A stretch of 53,640 nucleotides of DNA from an uncultured archaeon (GCA_964484305.1 CAZAEI010000005.1:1-53640), one strand, 5' to 3'. Shown: positions 5,974 to 40,031, numbered from the stretch's first letter. Translations and numbers: made by a program. The notes: a model not told the origin generated them from the letters alone.

Positions 5974-8673
5974 TTATATGTCCGGCCTGAAGAGCCTGTC
6001 CCTGAGCCATATTATGGCCAGGATCGTGCTCGAGACCGCGAGTATCTCCAGCCATTCCACAAGGCCCAGGGCCATTGTGGTGAATATGGGCTGGAGTACA
6101 GGGGTGTAGACAACCAGGAGCTGGAGCAGTATGGAGACTACCATGGCCAGGAGCAGCTTCCTGTTTGAGAAGACCCCTATCCTGTACTTGAGCCTCACGG
6201 ACTGGACCCTGACCATCTCGAAGACGACCAGGGATGTGAAGGCCATGGTCACTGCCTTGGTGGCACCCCCCGGGAGGTTCAGCCAGAACAGGAAGAGCGT
6301 TCCCATGCAGATTATCACACCTACGAGCCAGATGTCAGTGAGCATGCCCCTGGAGAGTATCCTCTCCTTGGGGCTCCTCGGCGGCCGCTCCATGATGTTG
6401 GGGGCAGGCGGGTCAACGCCCAGGGCCAGGGCAGGGAGGCCGTCTGTCAGGAGGTTTATCCAGAGGAGCTGAATGGCAGTGACGGGGATGAGGACAGCCC
6501 CGGTGGCCGGGTCGGTGAAGCCTATTAGTATGGCCAGGAAGACAACAAGGACCTCACCCACGTTGCTTGAGAGCAGGTACTGTATGAACTTCTTGATATT
6601 GTCATAGATGGCACGGCCTCCCTTGACGGCTGTTACGATGTTTGAGAAGTTGTCATCCCTCAGGACCATGTCCGAGGCCTCCCTGGCAACGTCCGTTCCC
6701 TTGATGCCCATGGCTATCCCTATGTCAGCCTTCTTCAGGGCAGGGGCGTCATTGACCCCGTCACCTGTCATGGCTATTATGTGGCCCTTACCCTTCAGGG
6801 CTTCCACTATACGGACCTTGTGTTCCGGGTTTACCCTGGCATAGACCGAGACGTCCCTGGCTATGGAGGCCAGCTTATCTTCAGAGAGGTTGTCGAGCTC
6901 CTCACCTGTAAGGGCCATTACATTGCCATGGTTGAGGTTCAGCTGCCTTGCTATTGCGACAGCCGTATTCCGGTGGTCTCCTGTTATCATAACCACCTTA
7001 ATGCCTGCCCTGCTGCAGAGCTCTATGTCCTCCCTGACACCATCCCTGGGAGGGTCTATCATACCCACAAGGCCCAGAAGGGTCAGGCCTGACTCTGCCT
7101 GCCTCTGGCTGGCCGTGTCCCTCAGCGGCCTTGTGGCCACTGCCAGGACCCGGAGCGCCTTGCTCGTCATCTCAAGGTTGGCGTCGAGGATGACCTTCCT
7201 GTCCCTCTGGGTGAGCCTTACCCTCTGACCATTCCTGAGCATATGCGTGGAAAGGGAGAGTATGGTCTCAGGCGCGCCCTTGGCGTGAAGAAACGACCTG
7301 TCTGCCCTGCAGATGACGCTCATCCGCTTTCTTTCAGAGGAGAACGGAAATTCCCTTATTCGCTTGTGCCTGGAGAGCCCTTCCGGGGCAATGCCTGCCT
7401 TGGCTGCGGCAACGATAAGGGAGCCCTCGGTGGGGTCGCCGATTATTGACCACAACCCCTTATCCTTCACGAGCCTGGCGTTGTTGCACAGGGCGCCTGA
7501 GCGGAGGATGGCCTTCAGGGTGGTGTCTGTAGAGGGGTGAACAGGCCTTCCCCTGAAGAGGAATTCCCCGGTTGGGGAATATCCCTCCCCTGTTATCTCA
7601 ATTGTCTTGCCGCTGTGCCATATCTGGGTTATTGTCATCTCGTTCTTGGTGAGGGTTCCTGTCTTGTCAGCACAGATTGCCGTGGTCGAGCCAAGGGCCT
7701 CCACTGCGGGGAGCTTCCTTATCAGGACGTTGTGCTTGGAGAGCCGTTGCAGGCCAAGGGCCAGGGTTATGGTGACCACAATAGGGAGGCCCTCGGGTAT
7801 GGCAGCCACTGCCAGGGCTATGCCTATTATCACCATGGATATCAGGAGATCCTGGGTTATGGGAAGCCCTGCCAGGGGTCCTGACCTGAGGATTCCCAGG
7901 AGGACTACTGCGGCGCATATGGCCAGGATGAGGGTGCCCAGCCTCCTTCCAAAGGAGTCCAGTTTCTTCTGGAGCGGGGTGAGCTCCTCCCCGGCCTCCT
8001 GAACAACATTTGCTATCATTCCCATCTGGGTTGACATGCCTGTCTCAGTGACCACCCCCCGTGCACGGCCGTAGGTGACGCTTGTCCCGGCCCAGGCCAT
8101 GTTGCTTATGTCGGCCAGGGAATCCTTACTGACCGGTTTGGTGATTTTATTGACAGGGGTAGACTCCCCTGTAAGCGCGGCCTCATCCAGCTTGAGGTTG
8201 ACCACCTCGAGGAGGCGCATGTCAGCAGGGACCCTGGTGCCCTGCTCCAATATAACAATGTCCCCCGGGACCAGGAGCCTGCTGGGAATCCTGGCCTCCC
8301 GGCCGTCCCTGAGGACAACTGCCTCGTGGGCTGCCATGCACTTGAGTGCTGCCATGGTCTTTTCAGCCCGGTATTCCTGGATGAAGCCGAATATCGCATT
8401 GAGAATTACTATTATTATGATGCCCAGGGCATCTGTGAAATAACCAATAAGGGCCGAGAATATGGTGGCGGCTATCAGTATTGCGATGAGGAAGCTCTTG
8501 AACTGGTTGAGAAATATGGAGACCGGCCCGGGCCCCTTCTCCTCCCTCAGCTCGTTGAGGCCGTATCTCTTTAGGCGGGAGGCTGCCTCAGTAGAAGAGA
8601 GCCCTCCCTCAGGGGTCTTCAGGTCACCCAGAACCTGGGCTGTGGTCTTCTTGTGCCAGCCAGGAAGAGTCAT
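5974..8673 (-). CDS. P-type cation-transporting ATPase (type IIA, Ca2+-ATPase-like)
   Basis: TGES, IPEGL, DKTGTLT, KGAPE, DPPR, MITGD, TGDGVNDAPAL, and LWINLLTDGLPALAL (two-site Ca-type M6). Confidence 0.95.
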   Translation of the reverse strand: MTLPGWHKKTTAQVLGDLKTPEGGLSSTEAASRLKRYGLNELREEKGPGPVSIFLNQFKSFLIAILIAATIFSALIGYFTDALGIIIIVILNAIFGFIQEYRAEKTMAALKCMAAHEAVVLRDGREARIPSRLLVPGDIVILEQGTRVPADMRLLEVVNLKLDEAALTGESTPVNKITKPVSKDSLADISNMAWAGTSVTYGRARGVVTETGMSTQMGMIANVVQEAGEELTPLQKKLDSFGRRLGTLILAICAAVVLLGILRSGPLAGLPITQDLLISMVIIGIALAVAAIPEGLPIVVTITLALGLQRLSKHNVLIRKLPAVEALGSTTAICADKTGTLTKNEMTITQIWHSGKTIEITGEGYSPTGEFLFRGRPVHPSTDTTLKAILRSGALCNNARLVKDKGLWSIIGDPTEGSLIVAAAKAGIAPEGLSRHKRIREFPFSSERKRMSVICRADRSFLHAKGAPETILSLSTHMLRNGQRVRLTQRDRKVILDANLEMTSKALRVLAVATRPLRDTASQRQAESGLTLLGLVGMIDPPRDGVREDIELCSRAGIKVVMITGDHRNTAVAIARQLNLNHGNVMALTGEELDNLSEDKLASIARDVSVYARVNPEHKVRIVEALKGKGHIIAMTGDGVNDAPALKKADIGIAMGIKGTDVAREASDMVLRDDNFSNIVTAVKGGRAIYDNIKKFIQYLLSSNVGEVLVVFLAILIGFTDPATGAVLIPVTAIQLLWINLLTDGLPALALGVDPPAPNIMERPPRSPKERILSRGMLTDIWLVGVIICMGTLFLFWLNLPGGATKAVTMAFTSLVVFEMVRVQSVRLKYRIGVFSNRKLLLAMVVSILLQLLVVYTPVLQPIFTTMALGLVEWLEILAVSSTILAIIWLRDRLFRPDI

Positions 8674-8709
8674 ATCTTTAGTATTGTCTGACCTGGCTTA
8701 ATAGTTTCC

Positions 8710-9252
8710 TCAGTAGGGCATCTGGAATCCCTGGGGGCCGCCGTATTCCGCCATGAAGGGCACGAGGAAGCTCAGGGCCATGAGCGCCAGTACAGCCAGT
8801 ATTATCATCGGCACTATGAAGGCTATCAGTATGGAGAGCGCTGCCCTGTCCCCTGGCATGCCGTGCAGCTTCTGGAGGCCTGTCCAGTCCAGGTAGAGGG
8901 ACCAGAGCCAGAAGAGTATGCCTATATAGGGTATCCATCCCAGCAGATAGCTGGGAGTGCCCCCATAGAAGACTGTCTTGAGGGTCTGGTGTAGCCCCTT
9001 CTTGGCCCCAAACACATAGGCCCACAGGTGCAGCCAGAGGCCGGCTATCACAGCTCCTACTATCCCGAATATGTAGATTGTTATAAAGGTCAGGGGATTG
9101 AGGGATATTATAGCAGATAGCACCGAAACGATAAGGAAGAGGATGGCCATGTACTTGAAGGCCTCAATAACATCGGTTCCCTTCTCCTTATCATACGCCT
9201 TGGCGGGTTGCTGCAGAAATCCCATTGCCTTTTGGAATATGTCGTTTAACAT
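8710..9252 (-). CDS. Yip1-family membrane protein
   Basis: Five hydrophobic segments; N-terminal LQQPAKAY, YGGTPSYLLGWIP and GLQKLHG pattern typical of Yip1. Confidence 0.7.
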   Translation of the reverse strand: MLNDIFQKAMGFLQQPAKAYDKEKGTDVIEAFKYMAILFLIVSVLSAIISLNPLTFITIYIFGIVGAVIAGLWLHLWAYVFGAKKGLHQTLKTVFYGGTPSYLLGWIPYIGILFWLWSLYLDWTGLQKLHGMPGDRAALSILIAFIVPMIILAVLALMALSFLVPFMAEYGGPQGFQMPY

Positions 9253-9316
9253 TGGTTATTCTATGTTTCTGGTATTTAAATCATCCACCCGTATGGCCGC
9301 TGGTTGGTGATAGAAG

Positions 9317-9646
9317 CTACCGGCCTTCCTCTTTCAGGCCCATTATGGCCTCTGCTATTCCACCAAACCGCTGGAGCGCTCTGCGGGCATCCTCCTGGGA
9401 GACCCCGGCCTTATCAGCTACCATCTCCACGTCATCGTCAGAGAACCCGGATTTTTCCCGCTCCTCCACATCCCCGGATATCTGGAAGGTCTCCTGGCCC
9501 ATCATGTTAACCTTGGCCACAGAGGGGTTGTGTATGACTATCTCCCCTTCAGGGGTCTTTATTATAACCTCTTCTGCGTCTATCTGGGCGCTCTGGATGC
9601 CCATCTTCCTGGCCATCTTCTCGAGCTGGCGGGGGTTTATCTTCAT
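9317..9646 (-). CDS. nac: Nascent polypeptide-associated complex protein (aeNAC)
   Basis: INPRQLEKMARKMGI, AEEVII, MGQETFQISG NAC domain plus a UBA-like tail (DDVEMV...AIMGL). GGTGA RBS precedes ATG at 9646. Confidence 0.92.
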   Translation of the reverse strand: MKINPRQLEKMARKMGIQSAQIDAEEVIIKTPEGEIVIHNPSVAKVNMMGQETFQISGDVEEREKSGFSDDDVEMVADKAGVSQEDARRALQRFGGIAEAIMGLKEEGR

Positions 9647-9712
9647 GAAACTCACCTTTATTTGGTTGGTGTTGGTTTATTTAAATGATATTGTCCTCGA
9701 AGCCCTGAATAC

Positions 9713-9727
9713 ATAACAGTGTTATAT
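9713..9727. promoter_or_regulatory. Palindromic operator-like motif, copy 1 (ATAAC-AGT-GTTATAT)
   Basis: Lies in the nac / HTH divergent intergenic region. The same motif recurs at 11398 and 18007. Confidence 0.55.
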
Positions 9728-9791
9728 CCGTTTGTTTTTCAGGCGGCCACATAAAAGAAGGTTTTAAATACACATATCATAATTATCGAAC

Positions 9792-10520
9792 ATGGATAGT
9801 GTAACTGACGAATTTTCACTTGCAAAACAGAAGCTGGCCAAGGACGTTGTGGGGGAGATTGTCCTTACCGAGAGCTCAGAGATGGTTATAAAGAAGTGGA
9901 GGAGTATATTCAAGATTTCCCAGAAGGCCCTGGCCAACGAGCTCGGGATAACCCCCTCTGTTATATCTGATTACGAGTCAGGCAGGCGAAGGTCCCCTGG
10001 TATAAAGCTGGTGGGAAGGTATGTGAACGCCCTCCTGAAGATAGACGAGGATAAGGGAGGCAGCGTCATCAGGAGCTTCTCCAAAACCAACCATGAAATA
10101 CCAAGCATATCCAATGCCATTATTGACATAAGGGAATTCTCATCCACTGTCAGCATACAGGATATCTGCCGCCACCTGAACGCACCATTTGTCGTGAAGA
10201 ACGGCATGGACAAACCTGTCTACGGCTATACTGTTATTGATTCACTCAAGGCAATCACAGAGCTTTCGTTTAATGAGTTGATAAAGCTCTATGGCATAAC
10301 ATCACAGCGGGCCCTCATATTCACCAAGGTCTCCACTGGAAAGACCCCCATGGTGGCCATAAAGCTGACAAACCTCCACCCGGCTCTGGTTGTCCTGCAC
10401 GGTCTTGATGTTGTGGATGGGGTTGCGAAAAGGATTGCTGAGGTAGAGGGCATCCCACTGGCCGTTTCCAGGGTGGCGTCCCCCGAGGACATAGTTGAGA
10501 GGATGAAGGAATTTGAATAA
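9792..10520 (+). CDS. XRE-type HTH transcriptional regulator with a C-terminal DRTGG-like domain (COG1709-like)
   Basis: GEIVLTES...IKKWRSIFKISQKALANELGITPSVISDYESGRRRSPG; C-terminal YGYTVIDSLKAI, RALIFTKVSTGKTPMVAIK. Confidence 0.85.
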   Translation: MDSVTDEFSLAKQKLAKDVVGEIVLTESSEMVIKKWRSIFKISQKALANELGITPSVISDYESGRRRSPGIKLVGRYVNALLKIDEDKGGSVIRSFSKTNHEIPSISNAIIDIREFSSTVSIQDICRHLNAPFVVKNGMDKPVYGYTVIDSLKAITELSFNELIKLYGITSQRALIFTKVSTGKTPMVAIKLTNLHPALVVLHGLDVVDGVAKRIAEVEGIPLAVSRVASPEDIVERMKEFE

Positions 10521-11207
10521 TCAGGCCTTGAGGATCACCCTCTTTATCTCACACTCTATTTTCCCTTTATTTATGGTCACGATACCATACCTTCCGGTAT
10601 AGAAGGGTCCCGGATAGAAAAGCACGCTTTTACCTATCCTGTCCTCCCCAATCGATTCATGTATGTGGGCGGATATCACGAGTTTTGGTTTCCTCTTCTC
10701 AATAAACTCCCTTATTACCGGAGAACCAGCATGCTCGCCTGTGGCTGTCCTGTCAAGCTTCGTGTCCCTGGGTGGGTTGTGTAGTATAAGGATAAAATCA
10801 TCACCTGCCCTTTTTGCCATCCCCTCAAGGGCCTCCTTGGTCTCCTCTTCTGTGGGCTCAAATGCTGTGTTGAAGGGGGTGAGGGCGCCGCCCCAACCAA
10901 TAAAGGTTTCTCCACCAAACTTCCTTACCTTACCATGGAGATTCACATCATACTCCTCGAACGCATCTATTATTTCATAGGGATCGTGGTTTCCAGGCAC
11001 ACAAAGCAGCGGAACCCCAAAGGAAACCAGCTTCTGTAGTATAAGGTCTGCTATGTTGTGTTGGGAGAACCCGGGTGGTTGGTTGAACATGTCAGTAAAG
11101 TCCCCCGGGGAGATAATAAGGTCAAATCCCGTGGCGTCTATCTTCTTAAAGAACTCTGAGATGTCATCAGAATAGCCATGCAGGTCTGCTATTATTAGTA
11201 TCTTCAT
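10521..11207 (-). CDS. Calcineurin-like metallophosphoesterase (Icc-related)
   Basis: IADLHG, PGDFTD, VPGNHD, LHNPP, SAHIHE. Start moved to MKILII at 11207. Confidence 0.9.
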   Translation of the reverse strand: MKILIIADLHGYSDDISEFFKKIDATGFDLIISPGDFTDMFNQPPGFSQHNIADLILQKLVSFGVPLLCVPGNHDPYEIIDAFEEYDVNLHGKVRKFGGETFIGWGGALTPFNTAFEPTEEETKEALEGMAKRAGDDFILILHNPPRDTKLDRTATGEHAGSPVIREFIEKRKPKLVISAHIHESIGEDRIGKSVLFYPGPFYTGRYGIVTINKGKIECEIKRVILKA

Positions 11208-11306
11208 ATAACCACCAACACCACCCCGCCACATTGTTGTGGGGCCGGATGTGTTGTTTGGTTTACAACTTAGTAGGCAAAGCCTTAAAAGCATGTGTTT
11301 GTGGTT

Positions 11307-11478
11307 CCCTTGTTTCCTGTGGAGATGGTTTTTTCAGACACCCCTCCATGGTTTCCTGTGGAGACTTAAAAAGAGAAAACAAGCAACAAGCAAACATATA
11401 TAACAGTGTTATATTATAGTTATAGTTATTCAATAACAAAAAGGTTTATAATACTCCCTCCATAAGAAACAAGGGGGG
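11307..11478. other. Candidate replication origin / Cdc6-binding region: three ORB elements around an AT-rich spacer
   Basis: ORB-like TCCACAGGAAAC-N-G-string on the minus strand at 11307-11325 and 11341-11365, and CTCCATAAGAAACAAGGGGGG on the plus strand at 11458-11478. A 92-bp AT-rich spacer (11366-11457) separates them, directly upstream of cdc6. Confidence 0.8.
11398..11414. promoter_or_regulatory. Palindromic operator-like motif, copy 2 (ATATAAC-AGT-GTTATAT)
   Basis: Perfect 7-bp inverted repeat with a 3-nt spacer, upstream of the cdc6 TATA box (TTTATAAT near 11446). Confidence 0.55.
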
Positions 11479-11483
11479 TGTAC

Positions 11484-12689
11484 ATGGAGCAGTCCAGCCT
11501 GAAAAACATATTCAATTCCTATATATCAGAAAGGAATATATTCAAGAACAAAGATACACTCACAACACGCTTTACACCGGAGAACATACCACACAGGGAT
11601 TCCCAGATAAAGCAGATTGCCCACATCCTGGCCCCGATACTGAGAAACGAGAAGCCATCAAACATATTCATATATGGCAAGACCGGGACAGGAAAAACCC
11701 TCGTTATAAGGAACATTATAGAGACCCTCACAAAGACAGCCGCGGCCTCTGGCGTCGGCCTGAAGGCCATATATGTGAACTGCAAGATGCAGAAGATAAC
11801 AGACACAGAATACCGCCTGCTTGCCTGCCTTATTAACGAGTTTGGTGAGTCAGTCCCCTACACCGGGCTGCCAACCAACGAGCTTTACAAGAAGCTGTTC
11901 AAATATCTTGAAGTGGGGGACAAGAACACAATTATAGTCCTCGATGAGGTGGATTCCCTTGTAAACAAGATAGGTGACGGGGTTCTGTACAACCTCACCA
12001 GGATAAACCAGGAACCAGAAAAAACAAAACTTACCATAATAGGGATATCAAACAACCTAACCTTTGTAGAATCCCTTGACCCCAGGGTGAGATCCTCACT
12101 CTCAGACGAGGAAATTGTCTTCCCTCCCTACAACGCCACCCAACTCAAGGACATACTCTCTGTCCGCGCTGGGGAGGCCTTCATCCCCAACACACTCTCC
12201 CCTGGGGTGATAGCCAAGTGCGCTGCCCTGGCTGCCCAGGAGCACGGGGATGCCAGAAAGGCCCTCGATCTGCTCAGGGTTTCTGGTGAGATGGTGGAGC
12301 GTGAGGGGACCTCCACGGTCACAGAGGTATATGTGGACATGGCGCAGAAGAAGCTTGACACAGACCGCTTCATGGAGACCATAAAAACCCTACCCAAGCA
12401 ATCCCAGGCGGTCTTTATAGCCATACTGAACCTCTCTGTGGGTGGGAAGGGGGGTATCCAGACAGGCGCTGTCTACGACACCTACTCAAGCACCTGCAGG
12501 GGTGTCGGGATGAATCCACTCACGCAGAGGAGGGTCTCAGACCTGATATCAGAGCTTGAGACCGCTGGGATAATAAACACATCAGTAACCTCCCGGGGAA
12601 GGTATGGCCGGACAAGGATAATAAACATTCCCCTCTCGGACAGCCTGGTAAAGAAGATGAAGGGGGTTCTCTTAAAGGAGTTTTCGTGA
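11484..12689 (+). CDS. cdc6: Orc1/Cdc6 replication initiator
   Basis: Walker A GKTGTGKT, Walker B IIVLDEVD, LDPRVRSSL, FPPYNATQL, HGDARKALDLL, and a wH domain (RRVSDLISELE, GRYGRTR). ATG at 11484 preferred over GTG at 11478. Confidence 0.97.
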   Translation: MEQSSLKNIFNSYISERNIFKNKDTLTTRFTPENIPHRDSQIKQIAHILAPILRNEKPSNIFIYGKTGTGKTLVIRNIIETLTKTAAASGVGLKAIYVNCKMQKITDTEYRLLACLINEFGESVPYTGLPTNELYKKLFKYLEVGDKNTIIVLDEVDSLVNKIGDGVLYNLTRINQEPEKTKLTIIGISNNLTFVESLDPRVRSSLSDEEIVFPPYNATQLKDILSVRAGEAFIPNTLSPGVIAKCAALAAQEHGDARKALDLLRVSGEMVEREGTSTVTEVYVDMAQKKLDTDRFMETIKTLPKQSQAVFIAILNLSVGGKGGIQTGAVYDTYSSTCRGVGMNPLTQRRVSDLISELETAGIINTSVTSRGRYGRTRIINIPLSDSLVKKMKGVLLKEFS

Positions 12690-12690
12690 T

Positions 12691-13671
12691 ATGGACAGAC
12701 AGGCCGTGGTAAGGGAGCTTACAAAGAAGGGAATCATCGTAACCCCCGAGATGCTTGAGGGTGACGGCCCGGGCATGCCACACAAAGGTGATGCATCCCA
12801 GGCCCCGCTATCCAAACAACCAAAGGCCAGGCTCTCCGTCAAGGTAGCGAGGGTGGATGGGCTGCCCAGGATGTCTGCTGGTGACTTCACTTCCTACTAC
12901 AACAGCCGCTATAACGGGCTGAGGGACATCCTCCTGAAGAAGATGCCCGCGCTCTCCATAAACAAGGCCAGAGAGAGCCTTTCTGAAGTCTCTGTTATAG
13001 GCATGGTTAAGGAGAGAACCCCTCAGGGGTTTGTCCTTGAGGACACCACTGGTGAGATTCCTGTCGTGAGCAGTGACGAGGTCAGGGACGATGATGTTGT
13101 TGGCGTAAAGGGGGCGGTCAGGGAGGGCCGCCTGTTCCAGGGGGAGCTTGTCTGGCCAGACATCCCCCTAAGCAACGGGGCGAGGTTTGTGCCCGGCATG
13201 ACGCTGCTGCTCTCGACCATCTTGGACGAAGGCATAAGAAAGGCAGCCAGGGACGCCAGCCTGGTGTTCATTCCAGAGAGGCCGGAAACAGCGCTGACAG
13301 AAGACGAGGAGAGGAGGCTGATAACAGCCCTGCCAAACCCCTGCCATGCTGCCATAATGAAGGAAGACGAGACATTCAACCTGCTTATATACCACCCAGG
13401 CAGGCCGGTATCCGGGCAGGATGCCCTGGGGATGCTGAGAAGGAGGCACCTCTCCCCTGACAGGAGAGAGATATCCACAACAACCGACCCCTATCTTATA
13501 GAGCCCGTCCCGGACCTGTTCTGGATAATGTCCCAGGAGCGCCACACCGAGAGGTATAGGGGCGTCACTGTGATAATAACAGGCAACCAGGACGCTGTAA
13601 AATACAACGCAGAAACAGGTGAGGCCACCTTTACCCACGACATCGCACCTTCACGCGCCGTGCCGGCCTGA
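12691..13671 (+). CDS. Shortened, catalytically inactivated DNA polymerase D small subunit (DP1)/B-subunit-like protein
   Basis: OB fold (YYNSRYNGLRDIL, VSVIGMVKE, LEDTTGEIPV, DDVVGVKG) and DP1 C-terminal signatures (LPNP, LIYH, RRRHLSP, DPYLIEPVPDLF, YRGV). The SDxH, GDxxDG, GNHD and GHxH motifs are absent. Confidence 0.75.
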   Translation: MDRQAVVRELTKKGIIVTPEMLEGDGPGMPHKGDASQAPLSKQPKARLSVKVARVDGLPRMSAGDFTSYYNSRYNGLRDILLKKMPALSINKARESLSEVSVIGMVKERTPQGFVLEDTTGEIPVVSSDEVRDDDVVGVKGAVREGRLFQGELVWPDIPLSNGARFVPGMTLLLSTILDEGIRKAARDASLVFIPERPETALTEDEERRLITALPNPCHAAIMKEDETFNLLIYHPGRPVSGQDALGMLRRRHLSPDRREISTTTDPYLIEPVPDLFWIMSQERHTERYRGVTVIITGNQDAVKYNAETGEATFTHDIAPSRAVPA

Positions 13672-13703
13672 CAAACATTTTTGTCATCACCCCAAATATA
13701 ACC

Positions 13704-14930
13704 ATGTTCCTGGATATCCTCCTGTTCATGCTCCTGGGCATACTCATCGGAACCATTACCGGCCTCATGCCCGGGATACACCCAAACACCGTCTTCGTGG
13801 CCATGATATCAGCGGTTGCCCTTCTGCCACCCACCCAGACAGAGCTGCTCCTTGTGTTCATCATGGCGCTCGCCGTCTCCAACACCTTTGTGGATTTCCT
13901 CCCCTCCATCATATTCGGCGCGCCTGACCCCGCGACCGCCCTCTCGGTCCTGCCTGGCCACAGGTTCCTGCTTGAGGGTAGGGGGTATGAGGCAGTCCTT
14001 CTTACGGTCATGGGCGGCCTGGGTGTTGCCCTGCTCACGCTACTCACACTCCCCCTTCTAATCTACATTATACCGGGGATATACCACATCATAAGGCCCG
14101 CCCTGCACATCCTTCTCCTCCTGGTCGTTGCCTGGATGATTCTTACAGAGGCCGGCTGGGGCAGGGTCCTCGCCCTGGCGGTCTTCTCACTATCAGGGCT
14201 GCTCGGCCTTGTAACCCTGAACGCCTTTGCCTCTGAGTCCATGCTCTTCCCCACCCTGACAGGCCTCTTTGCCCTGAGCACCCTCCTTGTGAGCTTCTAT
14301 ACCAGGAGCGTGATACCCGTCCAAGCAAGGACCGGGGAAATCAGGGGTGACCACAGAAAGGGAATCCTGACAGGATGGCTTGCCGGGTGGTTTGCAGGCA
14401 TGCTGCCTGGTGTGGGTGCTGCCCAGGCCGGGGTCCTGGCTGCGCAGTCCCTGAGGGCCAGCACCAGGGAGTTCCTGACCGCTCTTGGGGGAATCAACAC
14501 CTCAAACATAATGTTTACGTTCATAGTATTCTATTCAATATCAAAAACCCGCTCAGGTGCTGTGTGGGCAATATCCCAGCTGGTCTCCACCATCACGCTC
14601 TGGGACATGCTCCTCCTGGTTATGGTCGGGATAACAGCCTGCTTCATCTCAGCCATCCTAACCCTCGGTCTCGCAAGGGCCCTCCTAAGCCAGATAGGAA
14701 GGATAAACTACAGCACAGTGAGCCTGGGGGTGCTGATATTCCTTGTCCTGGTGGTCGCTGTCCTCTCAGGCCCCCTGGGCCTCCTGGCAGCGCTTGCAGG
14801 GACCTTCACAGGCCTGCTCGCAATCCTCTTCAGGGTCAGGCGCTCCCACCTGATGGGTTACCTCCTGCTCCCCACCATACTCTACTTTTCAGGCCTCTCC
14901 CCCACAGTGATGGTAACCATGGGAATATGA
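13704..14930 (+). CDS. TctA-family (DUF112-like) membrane transporter
   Basis: GTITGLMPGIHPNT, DFLPSIIFGAPD, VLPGHRFLLEGRG, LPGVGAAQA; about 11-12 TM helices. Confidence 0.85.
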   Translation: MFLDILLFMLLGILIGTITGLMPGIHPNTVFVAMISAVALLPPTQTELLLVFIMALAVSNTFVDFLPSIIFGAPDPATALSVLPGHRFLLEGRGYEAVLLTVMGGLGVALLTLLTLPLLIYIIPGIYHIIRPALHILLLLVVAWMILTEAGWGRVLALAVFSLSGLLGLVTLNAFASESMLFPTLTGLFALSTLLVSFYTRSVIPVQARTGEIRGDHRKGILTGWLAGWFAGMLPGVGAAQAGVLAAQSLRASTREFLTALGGINTSNIMFTFIVFYSISKTRSGAVWAISQLVSTITLWDMLLLVMVGITACFISAILTLGLARALLSQIGRINYSTVSLGVLIFLVLVVAVLSGPLGLLAALAGTFTGLLAILFRVRRSHLMGYLLLPTILYFSGLSPTVMVTMGI

Positions 14931-14948
14931 TGGTTAATGAACCAGGGC

Positions 14949-15083
14949 AAGGTAATGTGAACTTCCACAGGAAACAGGGGGGTGTTCCGGCCCTGCATGC
15001 TATCGAAATGAACACAAAATGAAGGTAATGTGAACCCCATGGTTTCCGGTGGAGAAACCACACCCCCTCACTTCCACTGGAGG
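14949..15083. other. Second ORB cluster (candidate origin core)
   Basis: CTTCCACAGGAAACAGGGGGG (+, 14962-14982), TCTCCACCGGAAACCATGGGG (-, 15035-15055) and CCTCCAGTGGAAGTGAGGGGG (-, 15063-15083). A 14-bp direct repeat AAGGTAATGTGAAC occurs at 14949 and 15022. Confidence 0.75.
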
Positions 15084-15222
15084 CTTCTACACTGCTTCAC
15101 AGAAACACGCAAACTTAACGCACGGCGCAGTGAAGTGATTGTTAACAAAACCATGGCACGTTAATGTCATGTGAACAAGAATGGTGCCGGCTCTGGAATG
15201 GCACGTAGGGTGCCTGGGCCAG

Positions 15223-17877
15223 CTATCTTCCCGGGCCCTGGGTGGTGACCATCTCTGCTGTCCCGCCTCTATGGGAGAAGAGAAGCCTCCCCCCGCAGGA
15301 GCAGGCCCCGACCAGGGGGATTCTGGGGTAGAACCTCCCGCATTTCTCACAAGCGAAGCCGCTCATGTCCGCAACCGGAATCTCCCTTACAGGCCCCTTC
15401 TGCTCTGCCTGGGTGTTGATTATGTGCATGAGGTCAGACTGCCTCCCTCCACCCATGAGCATAGAGCGTGAAACCCCCAGGACGCTGAATATCCTCTCCA
15501 TTGGAGGCAGGAGCTGGTTCTCGATATAATACCTGGAGTCCACCTGGATGCCGTTCTCCTCAACATATGTGGGGTCCTCGGCGCGCTTGGAGAGCAGACC
15601 CATACCCTTCACAATGACATAACCTATCCGGTCTCCCACACCAGGCACCTCACCGCTGTTCCTTGTCTGGAGCTTCTTCACCAGCTCTATATGCGGCTGC
15701 ATGCCCTCATATTTTTCCGGCGGCTTGGTCATGGTCTTGGTAACCACAAGCTTCTGCACAGACACCTCGTTCTTCACAAGCTTCTGGACTATTTCTGTGA
15801 AGTATGATACAGCCTCCATGGGATCGTCCCTCTTCAGGACAATCTCTATGACATTCCTGAGGGTATCGCCCACGAGCTCGCACCAGTCCCTCCGGACGGT
15901 CTCTATACCCTTCATCTCTATGCCCTCCTTCCATCCGCCATCCACAGGCTCAAATCTCCAGGCAAAGTAGCGCTTCTTGGTCAGCGGCAGAAACCTCTTG
16001 AACACCTTCTCAAACTCCAGCTCTATGATGCCAGGCAGCTTATCTGTCACATCCTTGGATATCCTGTTCGCTATCTTTCTTATCTTCTCCAGGTCATCCG
16101 TGTCAACCTTAATGACAACGGAATCAGTGTCACCATAGACCACCCTGTAGCCATACTCCTTCTCAATAATGTCCTTGGTTTTGTGGATGATGTCCCTTCC
16201 ACAGGCCGTGATGGTATTGGCCACGCTCAGGTCATATATCCTTGCCCTGGAGTATCCCATGTGCCCGTAGAAGGCATTGGCCATTATCTTGAGAGCCCAC
16301 TGCTCTGCCTCATAGGCCTTCTTCTTGAAGGGGTCCTTTGCCCTGGCCTTCTTTTTCTTGGCCTCCACCCTGCTCTCCAGCAGGCCCTCGATTATGGTTG
16401 GTATGATACCCACCCTTACCTTTCTGGGGGCGAATTTCGTTCCCGCAACAGTCTCTATGGGGTTGTCAACGGGCTTGTCCCTGATAATCGTGGTCGGGCA
16501 TATATTGAACGACCTTACTATGGAGGGGTACATGCTCTTGAAGTCCAGGACCACCACATTTGAATGGGGCTTCTTTTCAGGCTCGAACACAAAGCCGCCC
16601 TTGAGCTCCCTCTTCTTATCATCCTCCCTCCTGGCTATCTCGCTGCTTGTGGGCCTGCACGGAAGGATATAGCCCGCCCTGTTGAATTCCCTGAGAAGGA
16701 AGTTCTCTATCCTTGTTGTTTCACCGCTGTTCAGGGTGTCCTGCAGCAGGGTCCCGGAGACCTTGGAAAGGGCCACATACTTGTCTATCAGGTTGAGCCT
16801 CTGTACAAGAGACATTGCCAGAACCGAGTCCTTCTGCGAATACTTCACAAGCCTGGCAAACTCCTCAGGGCTGCCCCTCCAGAACCTCTCTATCTCACGC
16901 AGCTTCACAGGCTCCTTGTGGTCATTCAGGAGCCTCTCTGCGACAAAATCAAGGCCGTACCTCGCAAGGGAGTAGTCCTTCTTTACAATCTCAAAGCTGT
17001 CCACAACAACCCTGCCTATTATGGATATCCTGTACCTGGCCATGAGCTTCCTGGCATTGACCTGCTTCTGGTTGCAGCGGCCCATGAAAGGCCTTATCCT
17101 ATGTTCTCTCATCCTGTCCAGTATGTAGGGGATGTCGAAGTTGTTTACGTTGTAGCCGGTCAGGATGTCAGGGTCGTACTGGTTTATTATCTCAGCAAAC
17201 CTCTCCAGCATCTCCTTCTCTGATGAGAGGGTAGTCACGCCAGGGCCCGGCCTCGTGCTAAGCACCATCCTTTCAGCGCCCTTGAAGGGCTCCCCAAAGA
17301 CCATGGATATGAGGACAATGGGGTCCCTGGAAGCCTCTGGCAGGGTCCCTGGCCTTACAGACACGCACTCTATGTCAAAGGCAAGCATCCTTAGGGGAAC
17401 ATCCTTGAGCCCCTCCACGGGCTCCACCGAGCTGACCCTTACACACCTGTCAACATTAACGGTTTCGGTGGAGACGCCGTTTTCTTCCTTGAACCCAATC
17501 CAGCCAAGGCCCCTGATGCCCAGGTCGTTCATGAACCTGTACTTGAAGAGTATGTCAGCCTCATAGGCCGTGACCCCCGCAGCCACCAGCCGCTCCCTTA
17601 TCTCAGGGGTCCTTGATGGGTTGGTTATGGTTATCTTATATACATCCCTGGGGTCCTGGTAGCCCATTACCATCTTCCTGGAGACCCTCTCTATCTTCTG
17701 CACCTGGGGTTCCTTCTCCATGAGTTCCCTGGTCTTCTCTCCATCTGCATAGAAATACGGCTTGTACCCCTCGTAGAAGGCGCACACGGATTTGCCTGAT
17801 TCAGTCTTGCCGAATATCCTGACTATGGGCCTCTCATCCACCAGGATGTAGTCGACATCGATAACCTGTATCTCCAT
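15223..17877 (-). CDS. polB: Family B DNA polymerase with a C-terminal Cys4 Zn-finger extension
   Basis: Exo motifs FDIEC, GYNVNNFD, YSQKDS; pol motifs LDFKSMYPSI, KIMANAFYG, YGDTDS, KKRY. PIP-like QSDLMHII, then CEKC-x12-CSC. Start at 17877 follows a GGTG RBS. Confidence 0.95.
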   Translation of the reverse strand: MEIQVIDVDYILVDERPIVRIFGKTESGKSVCAFYEGYKPYFYADGEKTRELMEKEPQVQKIERVSRKMVMGYQDPRDVYKITITNPSRTPEIRERLVAAGVTAYEADILFKYRFMNDLGIRGLGWIGFKEENGVSTETVNVDRCVRVSSVEPVEGLKDVPLRMLAFDIECVSVRPGTLPEASRDPIVLISMVFGEPFKGAERMVLSTRPGPGVTTLSSEKEMLERFAEIINQYDPDILTGYNVNNFDIPYILDRMREHRIRPFMGRCNQKQVNARKLMARYRISIIGRVVVDSFEIVKKDYSLARYGLDFVAERLLNDHKEPVKLREIERFWRGSPEEFARLVKYSQKDSVLAMSLVQRLNLIDKYVALSKVSGTLLQDTLNSGETTRIENFLLREFNRAGYILPCRPTSSEIARREDDKKRELKGGFVFEPEKKPHSNVVVLDFKSMYPSIVRSFNICPTTIIRDKPVDNPIETVAGTKFAPRKVRVGIIPTIIEGLLESRVEAKKKKARAKDPFKKKAYEAEQWALKIMANAFYGHMGYSRARIYDLSVANTITACGRDIIHKTKDIIEKEYGYRVVYGDTDSVVIKVDTDDLEKIRKIANRISKDVTDKLPGIIELEFEKVFKRFLPLTKKRYFAWRFEPVDGGWKEGIEMKGIETVRRDWCELVGDTLRNVIEIVLKRDDPMEAVSYFTEIVQKLVKNEVSVQKLVVTKTMTKPPEKYEGMQPHIELVKKLQTRNSGEVPGVGDRIGYVIVKGMGLLSKRAEDPTYVEENGIQVDSRYYIENQLLPPMERIFSVLGVSRSMLMGGGRQSDLMHIINTQAEQKGPVREIPVADMSGFACEKCGRFYPRIPLVGACSCGGRLLFSHRGGTAEMVTTQGPGR

Positions 17878-18006
17878 GGAACGCACCATTAAGGCAAAAC
17901 ACAACATTACAATCTTGCCATGAAAACAATAAAAACACAGCACGGCCCGCGTTGTATATTATGGAGAGATATTTTCCTGCCTCCTGGTTTGCGGAAGGTT
18001 GGGAAA

Positions 18007-18023
18007 ATATAACGGTGTTATAT
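18007..18023. promoter_or_regulatory. Palindromic operator-like motif, copy 3 (ATATAAC-GGT-GTTATAT)
   Basis: Perfect 7-bp inverted repeat in the polB / hjc divergent intergenic region. Confidence 0.55.
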
Positions 18024-18059
18024 CCCACCAAATTAAAAGCCATTTACCCATATATTATC

Positions 18060-18425
18060 ATGAAACTCTACCGCAAGGGCTTCAGGGCAGAGCGCGAATT
18101 GCTGAGGTTCCTGAGCGCCCGCGGCTACTCCTGCGTGCGCAGCGCCTCCTCGGGTGGCGCCCTCACTCCAGTGGATGTCGTGGCCATAAAATCAGGCAAG
18201 CTGCTTTGTTTTGAGATAAAGTCCTGGGCCAGGAAGCCCAGGCTCGACAGGAGCCAACTCTCCCGCTTCTCCGAATGGTGCAGGAACGCCCAGGCCCACG
18301 GCTTCGTTGCCTGGTACAACCAGAACCAGTGGAGGTTCCTTCCCGTAAGGGATGCCGAGGCCAACCGCTACGGTGACGAGTTCTGGATAGACTATGAATC
18401 CTTCCTAAGGGTCTTCACCCAATAA
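18060..18425 (+). CDS. hjc: Holliday junction resolvase Hjc
   Basis: YRKGFRAERELL, VRSASSGG, VDVVAIK, CFEIKS (PD-(D/E)xK). Start at ATG 18060. Confidence 0.9.
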   Translation: MKLYRKGFRAERELLRFLSARGYSCVRSASSGGALTPVDVVAIKSGKLLCFEIKSWARKPRLDRSQLSRFSEWCRNAQAHGFVAWYNQNQWRFLPVRDAEANRYGDEFWIDYESFLRVFTQ

Positions 18426-23096: not shown

Positions 23097-23228
23097 ATGA
23101 TGAAGAGAAAATGCCTAAAATGTGGACATAGGTGGGTTCCAAGAATAGATAATCCAAGGGTGTGTCCCAAATGCCATTCCGCATGGTGGGATAAGGAAAC
23201 TAAACATGCAAGTGGCAAAAACCGTTAG
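23097..23228 (+). CDS. 43-aa zinc-ribbon microprotein inside the IS, upstream of tnpB
   Basis: Translated by hand: MMKRKCLKCGHRWVPRIDNPRVCPKCHSAWWDKETKHASGKNR*. Two CxxC pairs; overlaps the tnpB start. Confidence 0.65.
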   Translation: MMKRKCLKCGHRWVPRIDNPRVCPKCHSAWWDKETKHASGKNR

Positions 23229-24318
23229 GTGCAAGATACACTCCCTTACAGGGATAAAGGAACAGATACTCAGCGATGAGTATAACGATTACCAAACTTT
23301 GTGCAAAGAGGTGTCGGATTGCGTGGACAACGACTGCATGCCACAGCTTCCATATTTCACATTCAAGAAGCCCCACAGGTACAGTGCGACCGTGTGGGGG
23401 GCCATAAGGAGTATAGAAAAGAAGAGACAGTTCGACAACATCAAGGAGCAGCCATTACACCTACGCAACGATGTTTTTACAGTCGTGGAGAAGCAGACCG
23501 AGGTGTCCAAGCATTGGCTCAGGCTACCCACCAAGCAGAGGCATGGTGGGGTTTGGCTACCAGTCATAGTCCCAAGGAAATACGAGAGCCTGCTAAAGCT
23601 AAATGTAGGCGACTCGAAGATAGCCAGGAACAAGAATGGATGGTTCTTGATGCTGACCGTCAGGAAGGAAGTAACTATCCGAAAATCATACTCTAACATA
23701 CTCGCCATAGATCTGGGGGAGAAAGTCATAGCGACTGTCTGTGGCAGTTTCAACAGCCAGAGACCCGAGTTTCTGGGGCGGGAGGTTAGGGGAACACGAA
23801 GGCACTATGCATGGCTACGCAAGAGGCTCGGAAAGAAGAAACTCCCAAAGGTAATCAAGCAGATAGGACAAACGGAACAGAGGAAGGCCAACGACACCCT
23901 GTTCAAGATAGCAAGGCATGTCAACGATCTGGCAGAGGAGCACAACGCTATAATCGTCCTTGGAGACCTTAAGGGCATAAGGAACTCAGCCAAAGGTAAG
24001 AGATTCAATAGAATAGTATCTTCTATGCCATACTTCAAACTAACCCAAACCATAACACACATGGCTAACTGGGATGGAAGACAGGTAATCAAGATAGATG
24101 AGAGGGGAAGGACATCCCACACATGTTCAAGGTGTGGAAGCAAGGGGACAAGACCACACCAGGGCTTATTCGGATACCCCCACTGCGGATACCAAGCGAA
24201 TGCCGACCATAATGGTGCAAAAAGAATCGCACAGATAGGTCTTGAGACTATACCATCTCTTGATGGGGCGACACTGGCATCGCCCATAACTTTAGGAGCG
24301 TGGCAACGTGCCCACTAA
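23206..24318 (+). CDS. tnpB: TnpB RNA-guided endonuclease
   Basis: RuvC-I LAIDLG, IVLGDLKGI, KIDER before TSHTCSRCG, RuvC-III NADHNGAKRI; 370 aa. Confidence 0.92.
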   Translation: MQVAKTVRCKIHSLTGIKEQILSDEYNDYQTLCKEVSDCVDNDCMPQLPYFTFKKPHRYSATVWGAIRSIEKKRQFDNIKEQPLHLRNDVFTVVEKQTEVSKHWLRLPTKQRHGGVWLPVIVPRKYESLLKLNVGDSKIARNKNGWFLMLTVRKEVTIRKSYSNILAIDLGEKVIATVCGSFNSQRPEFLGREVRGTRRHYAWLRKRLGKKKLPKVIKQIGQTEQRKANDTLFKIARHVNDLAEEHNAIIVLGDLKGIRNSAKGKRFNRIVSSMPYFKLTQTITHMANWDGRQVIKIDERGRTSHTCSRCGSKGTRPHQGLFGYPHCGYQANADHNGAKRIAQIGLETIPSLDGATLASPITLGAWQRAH

Positions 24319-27464: not shown

Positions 27465-30400
27465 TCACTCACCCTTGCTTAAATGTTGCTCAAGGGACGT
27501 TATATAGATTTGCGCCATCCTGAAACGCCCCTGCTTCAGCTTGTCCCTGGCCAGCTTGAGCTCAAGCTCAATCTCAAATGTATCCTCTCCAGCCTTCTTG
27601 AGCCGCTCTATCTTTACATCTATCTCCTCGAGCCTCCCTGCAAAGTCACTGTAGAGCTCCATCTCCTTGTTGCTTATCTTGTGCGGATTATGCCACGTGG
27701 GCCTGAACTGGACAAAGTACGGCTTGCCGTCATTATACTTGGGGTTCTGAAGCATGCCCACGCCGACACCCTGCCTGGATATTTTCTTGGCATACTCCCC
27801 ACCGTACTTGGTCTCCACCTTCTGTATGTCTGTAATAGACTTGGTGTTTAGCTGCACCTCTGTCAGGACATTTCCTGCAATGGCCTCCTTGAAGTCAGCC
27901 AGGACCTGGCTGCACATTATGATGCCTATGCCCCACTTCCTGAACTCCCTGGCTGCCTTCTCCAGGGACACGTAGCCGCCCTTGCCCCCGTACTTCTCAA
28001 GAAGCCTGTGCACCTCATCAAATACCATTATCACCTTTAGCGTGGTGGATTCCTCCCAGTTCATGCTGAAGAGGGAGTCTATTATTATGCCAACGGCCTC
28101 ATCATACTGTCCTGGCTTGAGCTTGTCGAGCGCGAATACCGTGATTTCACCCGGGGCAAGGTATTTTTTAAATCCCTTCTTTATATCACGGAGAAGCTCC
28201 TGGGGGTCTGTCACCTCGAATATCATGCCCTTGAACGGCCTGGTCGACTTCGGGTCCATGCCGAACATGCTGTAGTATTTCATAAGGTTCCTGTCCTCCA
28301 GGGCCTTGACAAAGCCTGTCCACTGGGCAGTGGGGTCGAATACAATCACAGGGATGTTCTTGTCCAGGGCCTCCTCCACAAACACCGAGGCCCCCACTGA
28401 CTTGCCAGCCCCTGTGGCGCCGGCCACTATAATGTGCGTGGTGAGGTCCGCGGGATTGAACCACGCATTCCTGTCTGTTTCAGCAACCCTGCCTATCCAG
28501 AATGAGTCCCCGCTCTCCTGGGGCATCTTTCTGTAGTTAATGGGAAATATGTACCTGGCCCTTTCAGACTTCCACTTCTTATATAATCCCCACCCATAGT
28601 AACCTACGATACCCATGCCCAGCATGGAGAGTATAAGCAGTATGATTTTTCCCTCCCAGGAAGACCAGTAGGGCTCGACCAGATTGAACACTGCCACCTC
28701 ATTTACGGACTTCCCGTCTGCAAAATACGCCCATATATCCAGGTAGTACTGGCCCGTGGGATTGTTCCCTTTCATTTCTATGGATTTCGTGAACGCGAGG
28801 GACTCCTCCAGGAAGACATACTCGCTCGCATCAGCCACTACCCGCTCCCTCTCACTGTCCTTGATTATGTACACTATGCTGACATTGAACCCGGGCGGTA
28901 GTGCCAGGTTTTTGAGCTCCACACCAAACCTGAGCTTGCCCCCCGGGTTGACATTCGGGGTCAGTATATTGATGCTGAGTGAGACCAGGTCCTTGGCCTC
29001 AATGCTCACAGTCATGGTTATGGGTATCTCCTGGCTCCTCCCTGCAGCCGTGACCAGGATGCTTCCTGTATATGTCCCTGTTCCCATGGTATCCGGAACG
29101 GACACCACAACATCTATACTCTCACTGCCATTGTAGGCAATCTCTAGGAGGCTCTTCTCCGGGAATATGAAATCCTCCAGGCCCTGGACGTCCAGGGAGA
29201 CAGTCAGGTTCTCGCTGGCCTTGTTCTTTACCGAGAACAGATAGGTCTTGTTCTCCCCGGGGTGAATCCTGATGCTGCCTATCGAGGTAGTAACAGTAAA
29301 GGGTATGGTCGTTGTGATGGTGCTCACAATCGATGACCTGCTGCTACCCCCTGTACTCCCGGTCCCGTCATCGCCATTACCATTCCCGTTCTCGCCTGTA
29401 CCCTCCCACTCGGCCACCACATAGGACGATGCCCCTGTGGTATTGAAGCCTACCCTATCCTCTATAGTATCCACGCTCGCTGATATGGAGACATTCTCGA
29501 ACCCCCCTGTGCAGGACCTCTCGCTTATGCTCCAGTTCGAGCATCGGTAGACCCCCAGGCTGGACTCTGTTATAGAGCCTATTGGCGTATAGGTGTAGAA
29601 GTCCTGGAGTGCTTGGGTGTAGTCAAGACTGAAACTTGTGATGCTGCTGGTCCTTGTAAGGTTGTGCTCCAGGGCAATCACCATGATGGGGTTCTCGGCC
29701 CCTTCGGGAAGGGTAACCCCTATCTGGGTGGTGTTCTCTGCTGTATAGAGGTCCAGTGTTATCGGGCTGGTCAGGTTGTCTGGATACTCTACTCCGTGCT
29801 GGTTCACAGCAGAGGCATTAACATCCACCCCGTAGAGCAAGACCTCGTGTCCAGAGAACCCCAGCTTCGTGTCATAGACCCTTCTGTGGAGGGTGTGGTT
29901 GTAGCCGCCTGAACTGTTGGCACTGAATCTATCGTGTATCTCCCAGAGGGTGCCGCTCTTGTAGAACGTGAAGTTCGCCTCTATGGCCACCCCGTCCTTG
30001 TCCGCCAGCGTCCCGTTCAGGTCTATCGGATGGTAGAGGTCAAAGTACCCCATGAGCGATGATGAGGTATTGGCCTCGTTCCCTGTGCTGTCGTTGGCAA
30101 AAACCACGGCCCTGTAGTCCCCCTCTGTCAGGGAGGAGCTGAAATTAAACTTCCATGTGCCCGGGGATATCTCGTACATTCCGGACGTATTCCTGAGGGT
30201 TCCCTCATAATAAATCCATGCCCATGCGGATGTTACATTTTCATTGTCAGTCAGGTCAGATTCCATCACCACTTCGCTTCTGCTTCCAGAATATTGAAGG
30301 TTCCCCTCATCATCCACGTCCGAATTCACAACCCTTATGTCATGTATCTGCGGCGCGGTCACGTCCCTGTATATCACTGCATCCGTCTCTTCTGCCGGGA

Positions 30401-39966: not shown

Positions 39967-40031
39967 ATTAATATTTAATGGTATGGTAAATATATAAAAC
40001 TTATACAAAACTTGTCTAATTTCCAGGATAT

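Follow-up and report, generated by a model that had tools for sequence, protein, structure and literature searches.

The family-B DNA polymerase (PolB) and the DP1-like protein encoded at 12,691-17,877 in a stretch of 53,640 nucleotides from an uncultured archaeon (GCA_964484305.1, CAZAEI010000005.1:1-53640) very probably form a heterodimeric replicative polymerase, in which PolB carries a zinc tail derived from DP2 and the DP1-like protein is a nuclease-dead B subunit. The whole stretch is referred to here as the window, and coordinates are counted from its first letter. The heterodimer is favoured because the polymerase appears active, its tail is DP2-derived, the presumed partner is a dead homologue of DP1, both proteins are conserved, and the two genes lie together at the replication origin (oriC). 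The replicases of eukaryotes are built in a comparable manner, from a family-B catalytic subunit and an inactive DP1-like B subunit joined via a C-terminal metal-binding domain.

A eukaryote-like design of this kind had been proposed in a preliminary description of the window, and it is supported by the anatomy of the proteins, their conservation, the co-location of their genes and an interaction published for Aenigmatarchaeota. It had been cautioned there that the zinc domain alone may not be new. Indeed, not just this domain but the entire two-subunit reading is already in the literature (PMC7544198, PMC12680538); since it was published for Aenigmatarchaeota in 2020 and 2025, the reading is supported but not new. 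Homology, fold, motif loss, conservation and synteny were established in the present analysis. The literature on Aenigmatarchaeota supplies two further findings, a yeast two-hybrid interaction of DP1 with the PolB tail and the lack of DP2.

The DP1-like protein

The DP1-like protein is encoded by an open reading frame (ORF) of 326 amino acids, in which RRRHLSP, VPDLF, ERPE and MSQE are all found. Alignment with DP1 bears out the earlier proposal that the oligonucleotide-binding (OB) fold and the RRRHLSP/VPDLF scaffold are kept. The protein is assigned by NCBIfam to the small subunit of PolD (E=7e-21), and a profile of its family matches solved DP1 chains across the OB fold and the RRHLSP...VPD segment (E=1e-14). 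With hhalign, the DP1-like protein and canonical DP1 are aligned end to end (probability 100%, E=3.3e-47). The alignment includes the family's N-terminal helix, MDxxxIVRxLTxxGxLVTPE, which falls on the N-terminus of DP1.

The fold agrees with this assignment. An AlphaFold2 model reached a mean predicted local distance difference test (pLDDT) score of 86.6 and a predicted template modelling (pTM) score of 0.80. All 43 of its significant PDB matches in Foldseek were either DP1 or the B subunits of Pol delta, epsilon, alpha and zeta; the top match was 9f2a_A (E=1.6e-16), and human Pol delta p50 (6tny_B) was matched at E=1e-13. An OB fold is followed by a calcineurin-like phosphoesterase fold, which is the architecture of DP1 and of B subunits.

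The phosphoesterase domain is about 100 residues shorter than that of DP1, and its catalytic residues are gone. In a profile-profile alignment with DP1, motif I (canonical SDIHVGS) reads LLLST, motif II (GDLVDG) reads IPERPE, motif III (GNHD) lies within a deletion, motif IV (YHG) reads YHPG, with a histidine that is variable in the family, and motif V (GHVH) reads MSQE. As all five motifs are lost, the protein is predicted to be nuclease-dead. Replacement of the catalytic motifs had been described before, and the loss as such stands, together with MSQE in the place of GHxH and the disappearance of SDxH. The pairing of ERPE with GNHD does not, as ERPE occupies motif II and GNHD is deleted.

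Another DP1 homologue, P0047 (398 amino acids; 8001-9197 in locus L011), matches the Pfam family PF04042 and yet has degenerate catalytic motifs. Its gene directly follows cdc6, and a metallophosphoesterase (MPE) gene lies just upstream of cdc6. In this related lineage, DP1 would seem to be at a less reduced stage of inactivation.

The polymerase and its zinc tail

PolB matches the Pfam families DNA_pol_B (E=6.7e-109) and exo1 (E=2.6e-36). The exonuclease motifs I-III and the polymerase motifs A-C are intact in its translation (FDIE, NVNNFD, YSQKD, DFKSMYPS, KIMANAFYG and YGDTDS), and it is predicted with confidence to be an active family-B polymerase. Its best matches among PDB sequences are catalytic subunits of Pol delta; the closest is the human one (E=2.3e-117), slightly above the PolBs of Thermococcales, and for the last part of the thumb the greatest likeness is to yeast Pol delta. 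The span given in the preliminary description ends at 17877, where an ATG is a likely start of the gene, as is the GTG at 17889; the database copy of the protein, P0061, has 888 amino acids.

It had also been claimed that PolB ends in a zinc motif, at about 15285-15360, after a box resembling the PCNA-interacting protein (PIP) motif. Both elements were found, the zinc motif being FACEKCGRFYPRIPLVGACSCGG (Table 1). The PIP-like box follows the thumb within G-G-G-R-QSDLMHII and has the family pattern G-x-G-[KR]-Q-x-x-[LI]-x-x-x-[ILF]. It is part of a disordered linker preceding the zinc domain (pLDDT about 50 in AlphaFold2), and about 20 residues separate it from FACEKCGRFYPRIPLVGACSCGG.

The tail of the PolB family has just four conserved cysteines. 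Of the 120 top-ranking relatives of PolB in the database, 117 have its signature, G-F-x-C-x-K-C...Y-x-R-x-P-L-x-G-x-C-x-C-G-G, and the three without it look truncated. The suggested kinship with the C-terminal zinc finger of DP2 was confirmed with a profile of 35 tails, which matched Zn-III of DP2 from T. kodakarensis (6knb_B 1129-1165, E=2.3e-7) and P. abyssi (6hms_B 1121-1157, E=8.5e-6); DP2 was the sole significant match. Judged by these profiles, the PolB zinc ribbon is homologous to DP2 Zn-III. In the PolD structure, the KxRRxP loop of Zn-III is seated in the groove between the OB and phosphoesterase folds of DP1 (PMC6355029), and its counterpart, an Arg-x-Pro-Leu-x-Gly loop, is kept in the PolB tails. 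When the 76-residue tail was modelled with AlphaFold2, residues 23-72 formed a confident beta-rich mini-domain (pLDDT >90). Foldseek returned nothing significant for this model (best E=0.2); the zinc modules of P. abyssi DP2 and Pol epsilon held ranks 2, 3 and 7, which would lend the homology weak backing.

Conservation and gene order

In a first protein search, about 46 full-length orthologues of the DP1-like protein were recovered (275-350 amino acids, identity down to about 27%), and an alignment of 27 sequences, with identity down to 28%, has 20 invariant columns. An exhaustive hidden Markov model (HMM) search of 1.84 billion cluster representatives (clusters at 50% identity; cut-off E<=1e-30) returned at least 289 clusters. 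The best 150 of these 289 representatives were 165-378 amino acids long, and most were matched end to end.

Related genome loci were found with an alignment of 12 DP1-like sequences; a scan with a single sequence gave no relatives. An intact DP1-like ORF of similar size is present in each locus examined. The co-occurrence called for in the preliminary description was found, as the DP1-like gene and PolB share one contig in at least 12 cases. These comprise eight DP1-like/PolB pairs, whose longest contigs are of equal size, together with loci L002, L004 and L005 and the window; the L002 contig (40,970 bp) matches that of the PolB P0069 in length.

The full order helix-turn-helix (HTH) gene-MPE-cdc6-DP1-like-TctA-PolB(-) recurs in L009 and L010, and the segment from cdc6 to PolB(-) is also found in L001, L002 and L004. 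L005 has the same genes, with those for MPE and HTH placed after the DP1-like gene and before TctA. The spacer gene was called as TctA by Pfam in L004, L005, L009 and L010, and corresponds in L001 and L002 to an ORF of equivalent size; it directly follows the DP1-like gene in five of these six loci, L005 being the exception. The gene order of the origin block is stable among relatives whose DP1-like identity is as low as 29%. The one-base junction between cdc6 and the DP1-like gene is shared with L001, L009 and L010. The distance between the DP1-like gene and PolB had been given as three kb; in fact the end of the DP1-like gene and the 3' end of PolB lie 1.55 kb apart.

The replication origin

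The location beside cdc6 and oriC, as first described, holds. Directly upstream of cdc6, an AT-rich stretch of about 90 bp (approximately 11366-11457) is flanked by origin recognition boxes (ORBs), which have the form TCCACAGGAAAC followed by a G-string, for example GGAGGGGTGT or GGGGGGTGT. Inverted ORBs around an AT-rich unwinding element beside orc1/cdc6 are what defines an archaeal oriC, and the region is accordingly a predicted origin. A scan of the window gave 16 ORB matches at up to two mismatches, against 5.6 expected, and all four matches at zero or one mismatch are confined to two intergenic regions. ORBs are also found upstream of cdc6 in L001, L002, L004, L005 and L009.

The other of the two regions is the TctA/PolB gap, 3.6 kb from the ORBs upstream of cdc6. 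This second cluster also contains direct repeats of AAGGTAATGTGAAC. An ORB lies at the same gap in L001 (4406-4417), L002 (12255-12266), L004 (12201-12212), L005 (11013-11024) and L009 (10283-10294). The cluster may be the other half of the origin or a regulatory site for Cdc6. One possibility, put forward tentatively, is that the origin is bipartite, with two ORB clusters bracketing cdc6, the DP1-like gene and TctA, and that the Cdc6-coupled, B-subunit-like protein is an origin-loaded tether bringing PolB to the nascent CMG (Cdc45-MCM-GINS) helicase. If true, this would be an archaeal forerunner of a Dpb2-type role.

The linkage of oriC, cdc6 and DP1 is described as common across archaea, and in Pyrococcus cdc6, DP1 and DP2 stand together beside oriC, according to the passages on DP1 and oriC in PMC2643942, which concern other archaeal lineages. 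As this linkage is common, the DP1-like gene appears to keep its place in the old oriC-cdc6-DP1(-DP2) operon, from which DP2 has gone.

Lineage and relation to known polymerases

The closest genome locus, L001, belongs to a Candidatus Aenigmatarchaeota archaeon (62% identity in the DP1-like protein), and the named relatives of PolB are Aenigmatarchaeota, with one labelled Nanoarchaeota. Judged by these nearest named relatives, the host belongs to the Aenigmatarchaeota (DPANN). From this phylum, Kazlauskas et al. (2020; PMC7544198) described a PolB group, B6-aenigma1, with one motif like DP2 Zn-III and placed by phylogeny in a Delta-like clade, as well as a clade of inactivated DP1 ('Aenigma_GB_GCA_002789635-like'). 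DP2 was missing from most of these genomes, and it was proposed that DP2 had been replaced by PolB, a possible route to the eukaryotic design. It was also suggested that B6 PolBs may derive from mobile elements. The window PolB has the tail that marks this group, with the match to 6knb_B, the four cysteines and the signature in nearly all relatives, and its PDB sequence matches to Pol delta would agree with the Delta-like placement. A PolB with a single Zn-III-like C4 motif, an inactive DP1 and a proposed heterodimer are common to both, and there is no essential difference between them; the window represents another genome of that lineage.

A later study (PMC12680538; 2025, Nat Ecol Evol) reported Aenigmatarchaeota that lack DP2 and keep DP1. 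DP1 interacted with the PolB carrying a DP2-type C-terminal domain (PolB-DP2CTD), as predicted with AlphaFold3 and seen in a positive yeast two-hybrid assay, and in the latter PolBs without the tail gave no interaction. Similarly, in Baldrarchaeia DP2 is absent, DP1 is kept and a DP2-derived tail is borne by PolB3; the pair was positive in yeast two-hybrid (PMC12680538). The baldrarchaeial tail is of full length, like the eukaryotic and DP2 domains, whereas that of Aenigmatarchaeota, as in the window, is shorter and was described as degenerate. A text search of PMC7544198 and PMC12680538 did not find the order oriC-cdc6-DP1-like-TctA-PolB, and a non-exhaustive look found no discussion there, or in the DP1 and oriC passages of PMC2643942, of the second ORB cluster or of the one-base cdc6/DP1-like junction.

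Archaeal PolD (P. abyssi, 6HMS/6T8H; T. kodakarensis, 6KNB) has a small subunit homologous end to end to the DP1-like protein and a Zn-III homologous to the window zinc ribbon; in Thermococcales its DP1 gene is also beside cdc6 and oriC, as given in the DP1 and oriC passages of PMC2643942. It differs in the catalytic subunit, which is the double-psi-barrel DP2 and not a family-B enzyme. The DP1-like protein, unlike DP1, is without the Mre11-like nuclease and part of the phosphoesterase domain, and the PolB tail is without the helical bundle of DP2.

The eukaryotic Pol delta, alpha and epsilon (B subunits p50, p70 and p59) share with the window a family-B subunit with a C-terminal metal-binding module and a second subunit made of an OB fold and an inactive phosphoesterase; the PolB core is nearest to Pol delta. 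However, the eukaryotic C-terminal domain has CysA and CysB, while the window tail has one C4 motif and lacks both a helical bundle and any indication of an Fe-S site. The DP1-like protein, at 326 residues with a truncated phosphoesterase fold, is also smaller than the matched eukaryotic chains of 409-573 residues.

Proposed mechanism and alternative explanations

In the proposed mechanism, the Pol-delta-like PolB would polymerise and proofread as the catalytic subunit. Its short zinc ribbon, inherited from the DP2 of PolD, would dock where the OB and phosphoesterase folds of the DP1-like protein meet, and the latter, its nuclease lost, would serve as a structural B subunit. The DP1N-type helix of the DP1-like protein probably links the polymerase to GINS/CMG, and PCNA would be bound by the PIP-like box that precedes the zinc ribbon. 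The DP1-like gene would be translationally coupled to cdc6 at oriC, in the old archaeal arrangement from which DP2 was lost. What we infer is the geometry of docking, the link to GINS, the binding of PCNA and the main-replicase role.

Several points weigh against the heterodimer. The DP1-like protein has no match to Pfam DNA_pol_E_B (PF04042) at E<=0.01. The tail is without the helical bundle by which DP2 and the eukaryotic catalytic subunits also bind their partner, and in PMC12680538 it is termed a degenerate DP2CTD whose predicted structure differs. No DP2-sized ORF with a DP2 match was found in the window, and the absence of DP2 from this genome is seen for 53.6 kb only. In L007 and L008 the DP1-like gene still follows cdc6 and PolB is not adjacent. 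Moreover, Zn-III also contacts DNA in PolD (PMC6355029), and therefore the PolB tail might have another role.

The last two points would also suit an explanation in which the DP1-like protein is chiefly an origin or CMG scaffold that partners Cdc6 and/or GINS without PolB, and the zinc ribbon serves some other purpose, for example holding DNA or binding another partner. It is in keeping with the conserved one-base junction, with the widespread cdc6-DP1 linkage and the Cdc6-DP1 interaction proposed in the part of PMC2643942 devoted to DP1 and oriC, and with the retained DP1N-like helix, as Thermococcus DP1N is reported to bind Gins51 (PMC9023282). Nevertheless, it is considered unlikely: DP1 binds PolB-DP2CTD of Aenigmatarchaeota in yeast two-hybrid (PMC12680538), the DP1-contacting loop is kept in the PolB tail, and the two roles are compatible, as eukaryotic B subunits do both. 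Another thought is that the pair is an accessory or mobile-element-derived module and not the main chromosomal replicase, given the origin suggested for B6 PolBs (PMC7544198) and a TnpB-like gene 5 kb away (23206-24318). The genes, however, sit at a canonical ORB/cdc6 origin amid housekeeping genes, their order is stable in distant relatives, the lineage is reported to lack DP2 (PMC12680538), and no integrase or repeat borders were seen around the origin/PolB block; such a module is rather improbable. It had also been allowed that the DP1-like gene might be a lineage-restricted, decaying copy. The loss of all catalytic motifs, the deletion of some 100 phosphoesterase residues and a divergence faster than that of PolB (identity to the window of 62% against 80% in L001, and of 40% against 68% in L002) could be seen in a functionless remnant. 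This reading was rejected, being contradicted by the conservation data: intact ORFs of similar size in all loci examined, the invariant columns at such low identity, and the 289 clusters; the confident predicted fold also argues against it, and decay is extremely improbable.

Neighbouring genes

The features of the origin block are collected in Table 1. Housekeeping genes for a class II aminoacyl-tRNA synthetase, NAC and Hjc are found around it; the window has no genes for tRNAs.

Table 1. Coordinates of the origin block and of protein segments discussed in the text (aa, amino acids)
Feature	Position	Strand	Remarks
Metallophosphoesterase (MPE)	10521-11294	-	Adjoins cdc6
Intergenic region, 183 bp			Between MPE and orc1/cdc6
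Predicted oriC core	11306-11483	.	Directly upstream of cdc6
oriC ORBs, core TCCACAGGAAAC	11312-11323, 11351-11362	-	
oriC ORB, TCCATAAGAAAC-AA-GGGGGGTGT	from 11459	+	
orc1/cdc6 initiator	11478-12689	+	NCBIfam ORC1-type, E=2e-149; Pfam Cdc6_C, Cdc6_lid; true start probably ATG at 11484
DP1-like gene, 326 aa	12691-13671	+	ATG one base past cdc6 stop
DP1N-like N-terminal helix	aa 1-23		DP1-like protein
Disordered linker	aa 24-44		DP1-like protein
OB fold	about aa 95-155		DP1-like protein
Reduced phosphoesterase-like fold	aa 168-316, 13192-13638		DP1-like protein
TctA-family membrane protein	13704-14930	+	Pfam TctA, E=3.5e-42
Intergenic region, 292 bp			Between convergent TctA and PolB genes; holds the second ORB cluster
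Second ORB cluster	14961-15068	.	TctA/PolB intergenic region
Second-cluster ORB	14964-14975	+	With GGGGGGTGT tail
Second-cluster ORB	15042-15053	-	
Family-B DNA polymerase (PolB), 888 aa	15223-17889	-	Pfam DNA_pol_B, exo1; start likely 17889 (GTG) or 17877 (ATG)
C-terminal zinc ribbon, about 50 aa	15238-15387	-	Single C4 motif, C-x2-C-x12-C-x-C
Zinc motif FACEKCGRFYPRIPLVGACSCGG	15289-15357	-	
PIP-like box QSDLMHII	15418-15441	-	After the thumb
Hjc	17952-18425	+	

The MPE is calcineurin-like and looks active, with DxH, GD, GNHD and HxH all kept. In every related locus with listed gene calls (L004-L011), it lies next to cdc6 and the DP1-like gene, namely in L004, L005, L007, L008, L009, L010 and L011. 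That it could be the split-off nuclease half of DP1 was considered and rejected, as the solved structures most closely related to it are aq_1956 and Rv0805 and its similarity to DP1 comprises the generic motifs I-III only (probability 77%). Six related loci also have the TctA-family gene between those for the DP1-like protein and PolB; it is a constant but odd component for a cluster of replication genes. Genes for Yip1, NAC, HTH and MPE proteins flank the origin block, and their order and orientation differ between relatives (8710-10520 in the window versus 8163-14836 in L005), which suggests inversions around oriC.

The TnpB-like ORF encodes 370 amino acids on the plus strand, with a Cas12f1-like TNB domain (Pfam E=9e-17) of a transposon-associated nuclease; it lies beyond the PolB start, on the side opposite to the DP1-like gene. 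Farther on, three ORFs of very large size (2949, 1133 and 1065 amino acids; 27465-36314, 36607-40008 and 40032-43229, all on the minus strand) follow one another and have almost no Pfam matches, apart from a HerA-type (DUF87) ATPase segment close to the C-terminus of the first (E=1.9e-8).

Biological significance

The route by which archaeal PolB and PolD gave rise to the chimeric replicase of eukaryotes is a central issue for the origin of the eukaryotic replisome. The Aenigmatarchaeota indicate that such a swap is possible within an archaeon: PolB gains a DP2 tail, DP2 is lost, and the nuclease of DP1 dies. The window is a clean and complete example of this at a recognisable origin, for a point that has already been made and partly tested. 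What is added here is a well-annotated locus, together with its conserved order of genes and its second cluster of ORBs. The minimal interface, a zinc ribbon of 50 residues and a B subunit of 326 amino acids, could suit biochemical and structural work.

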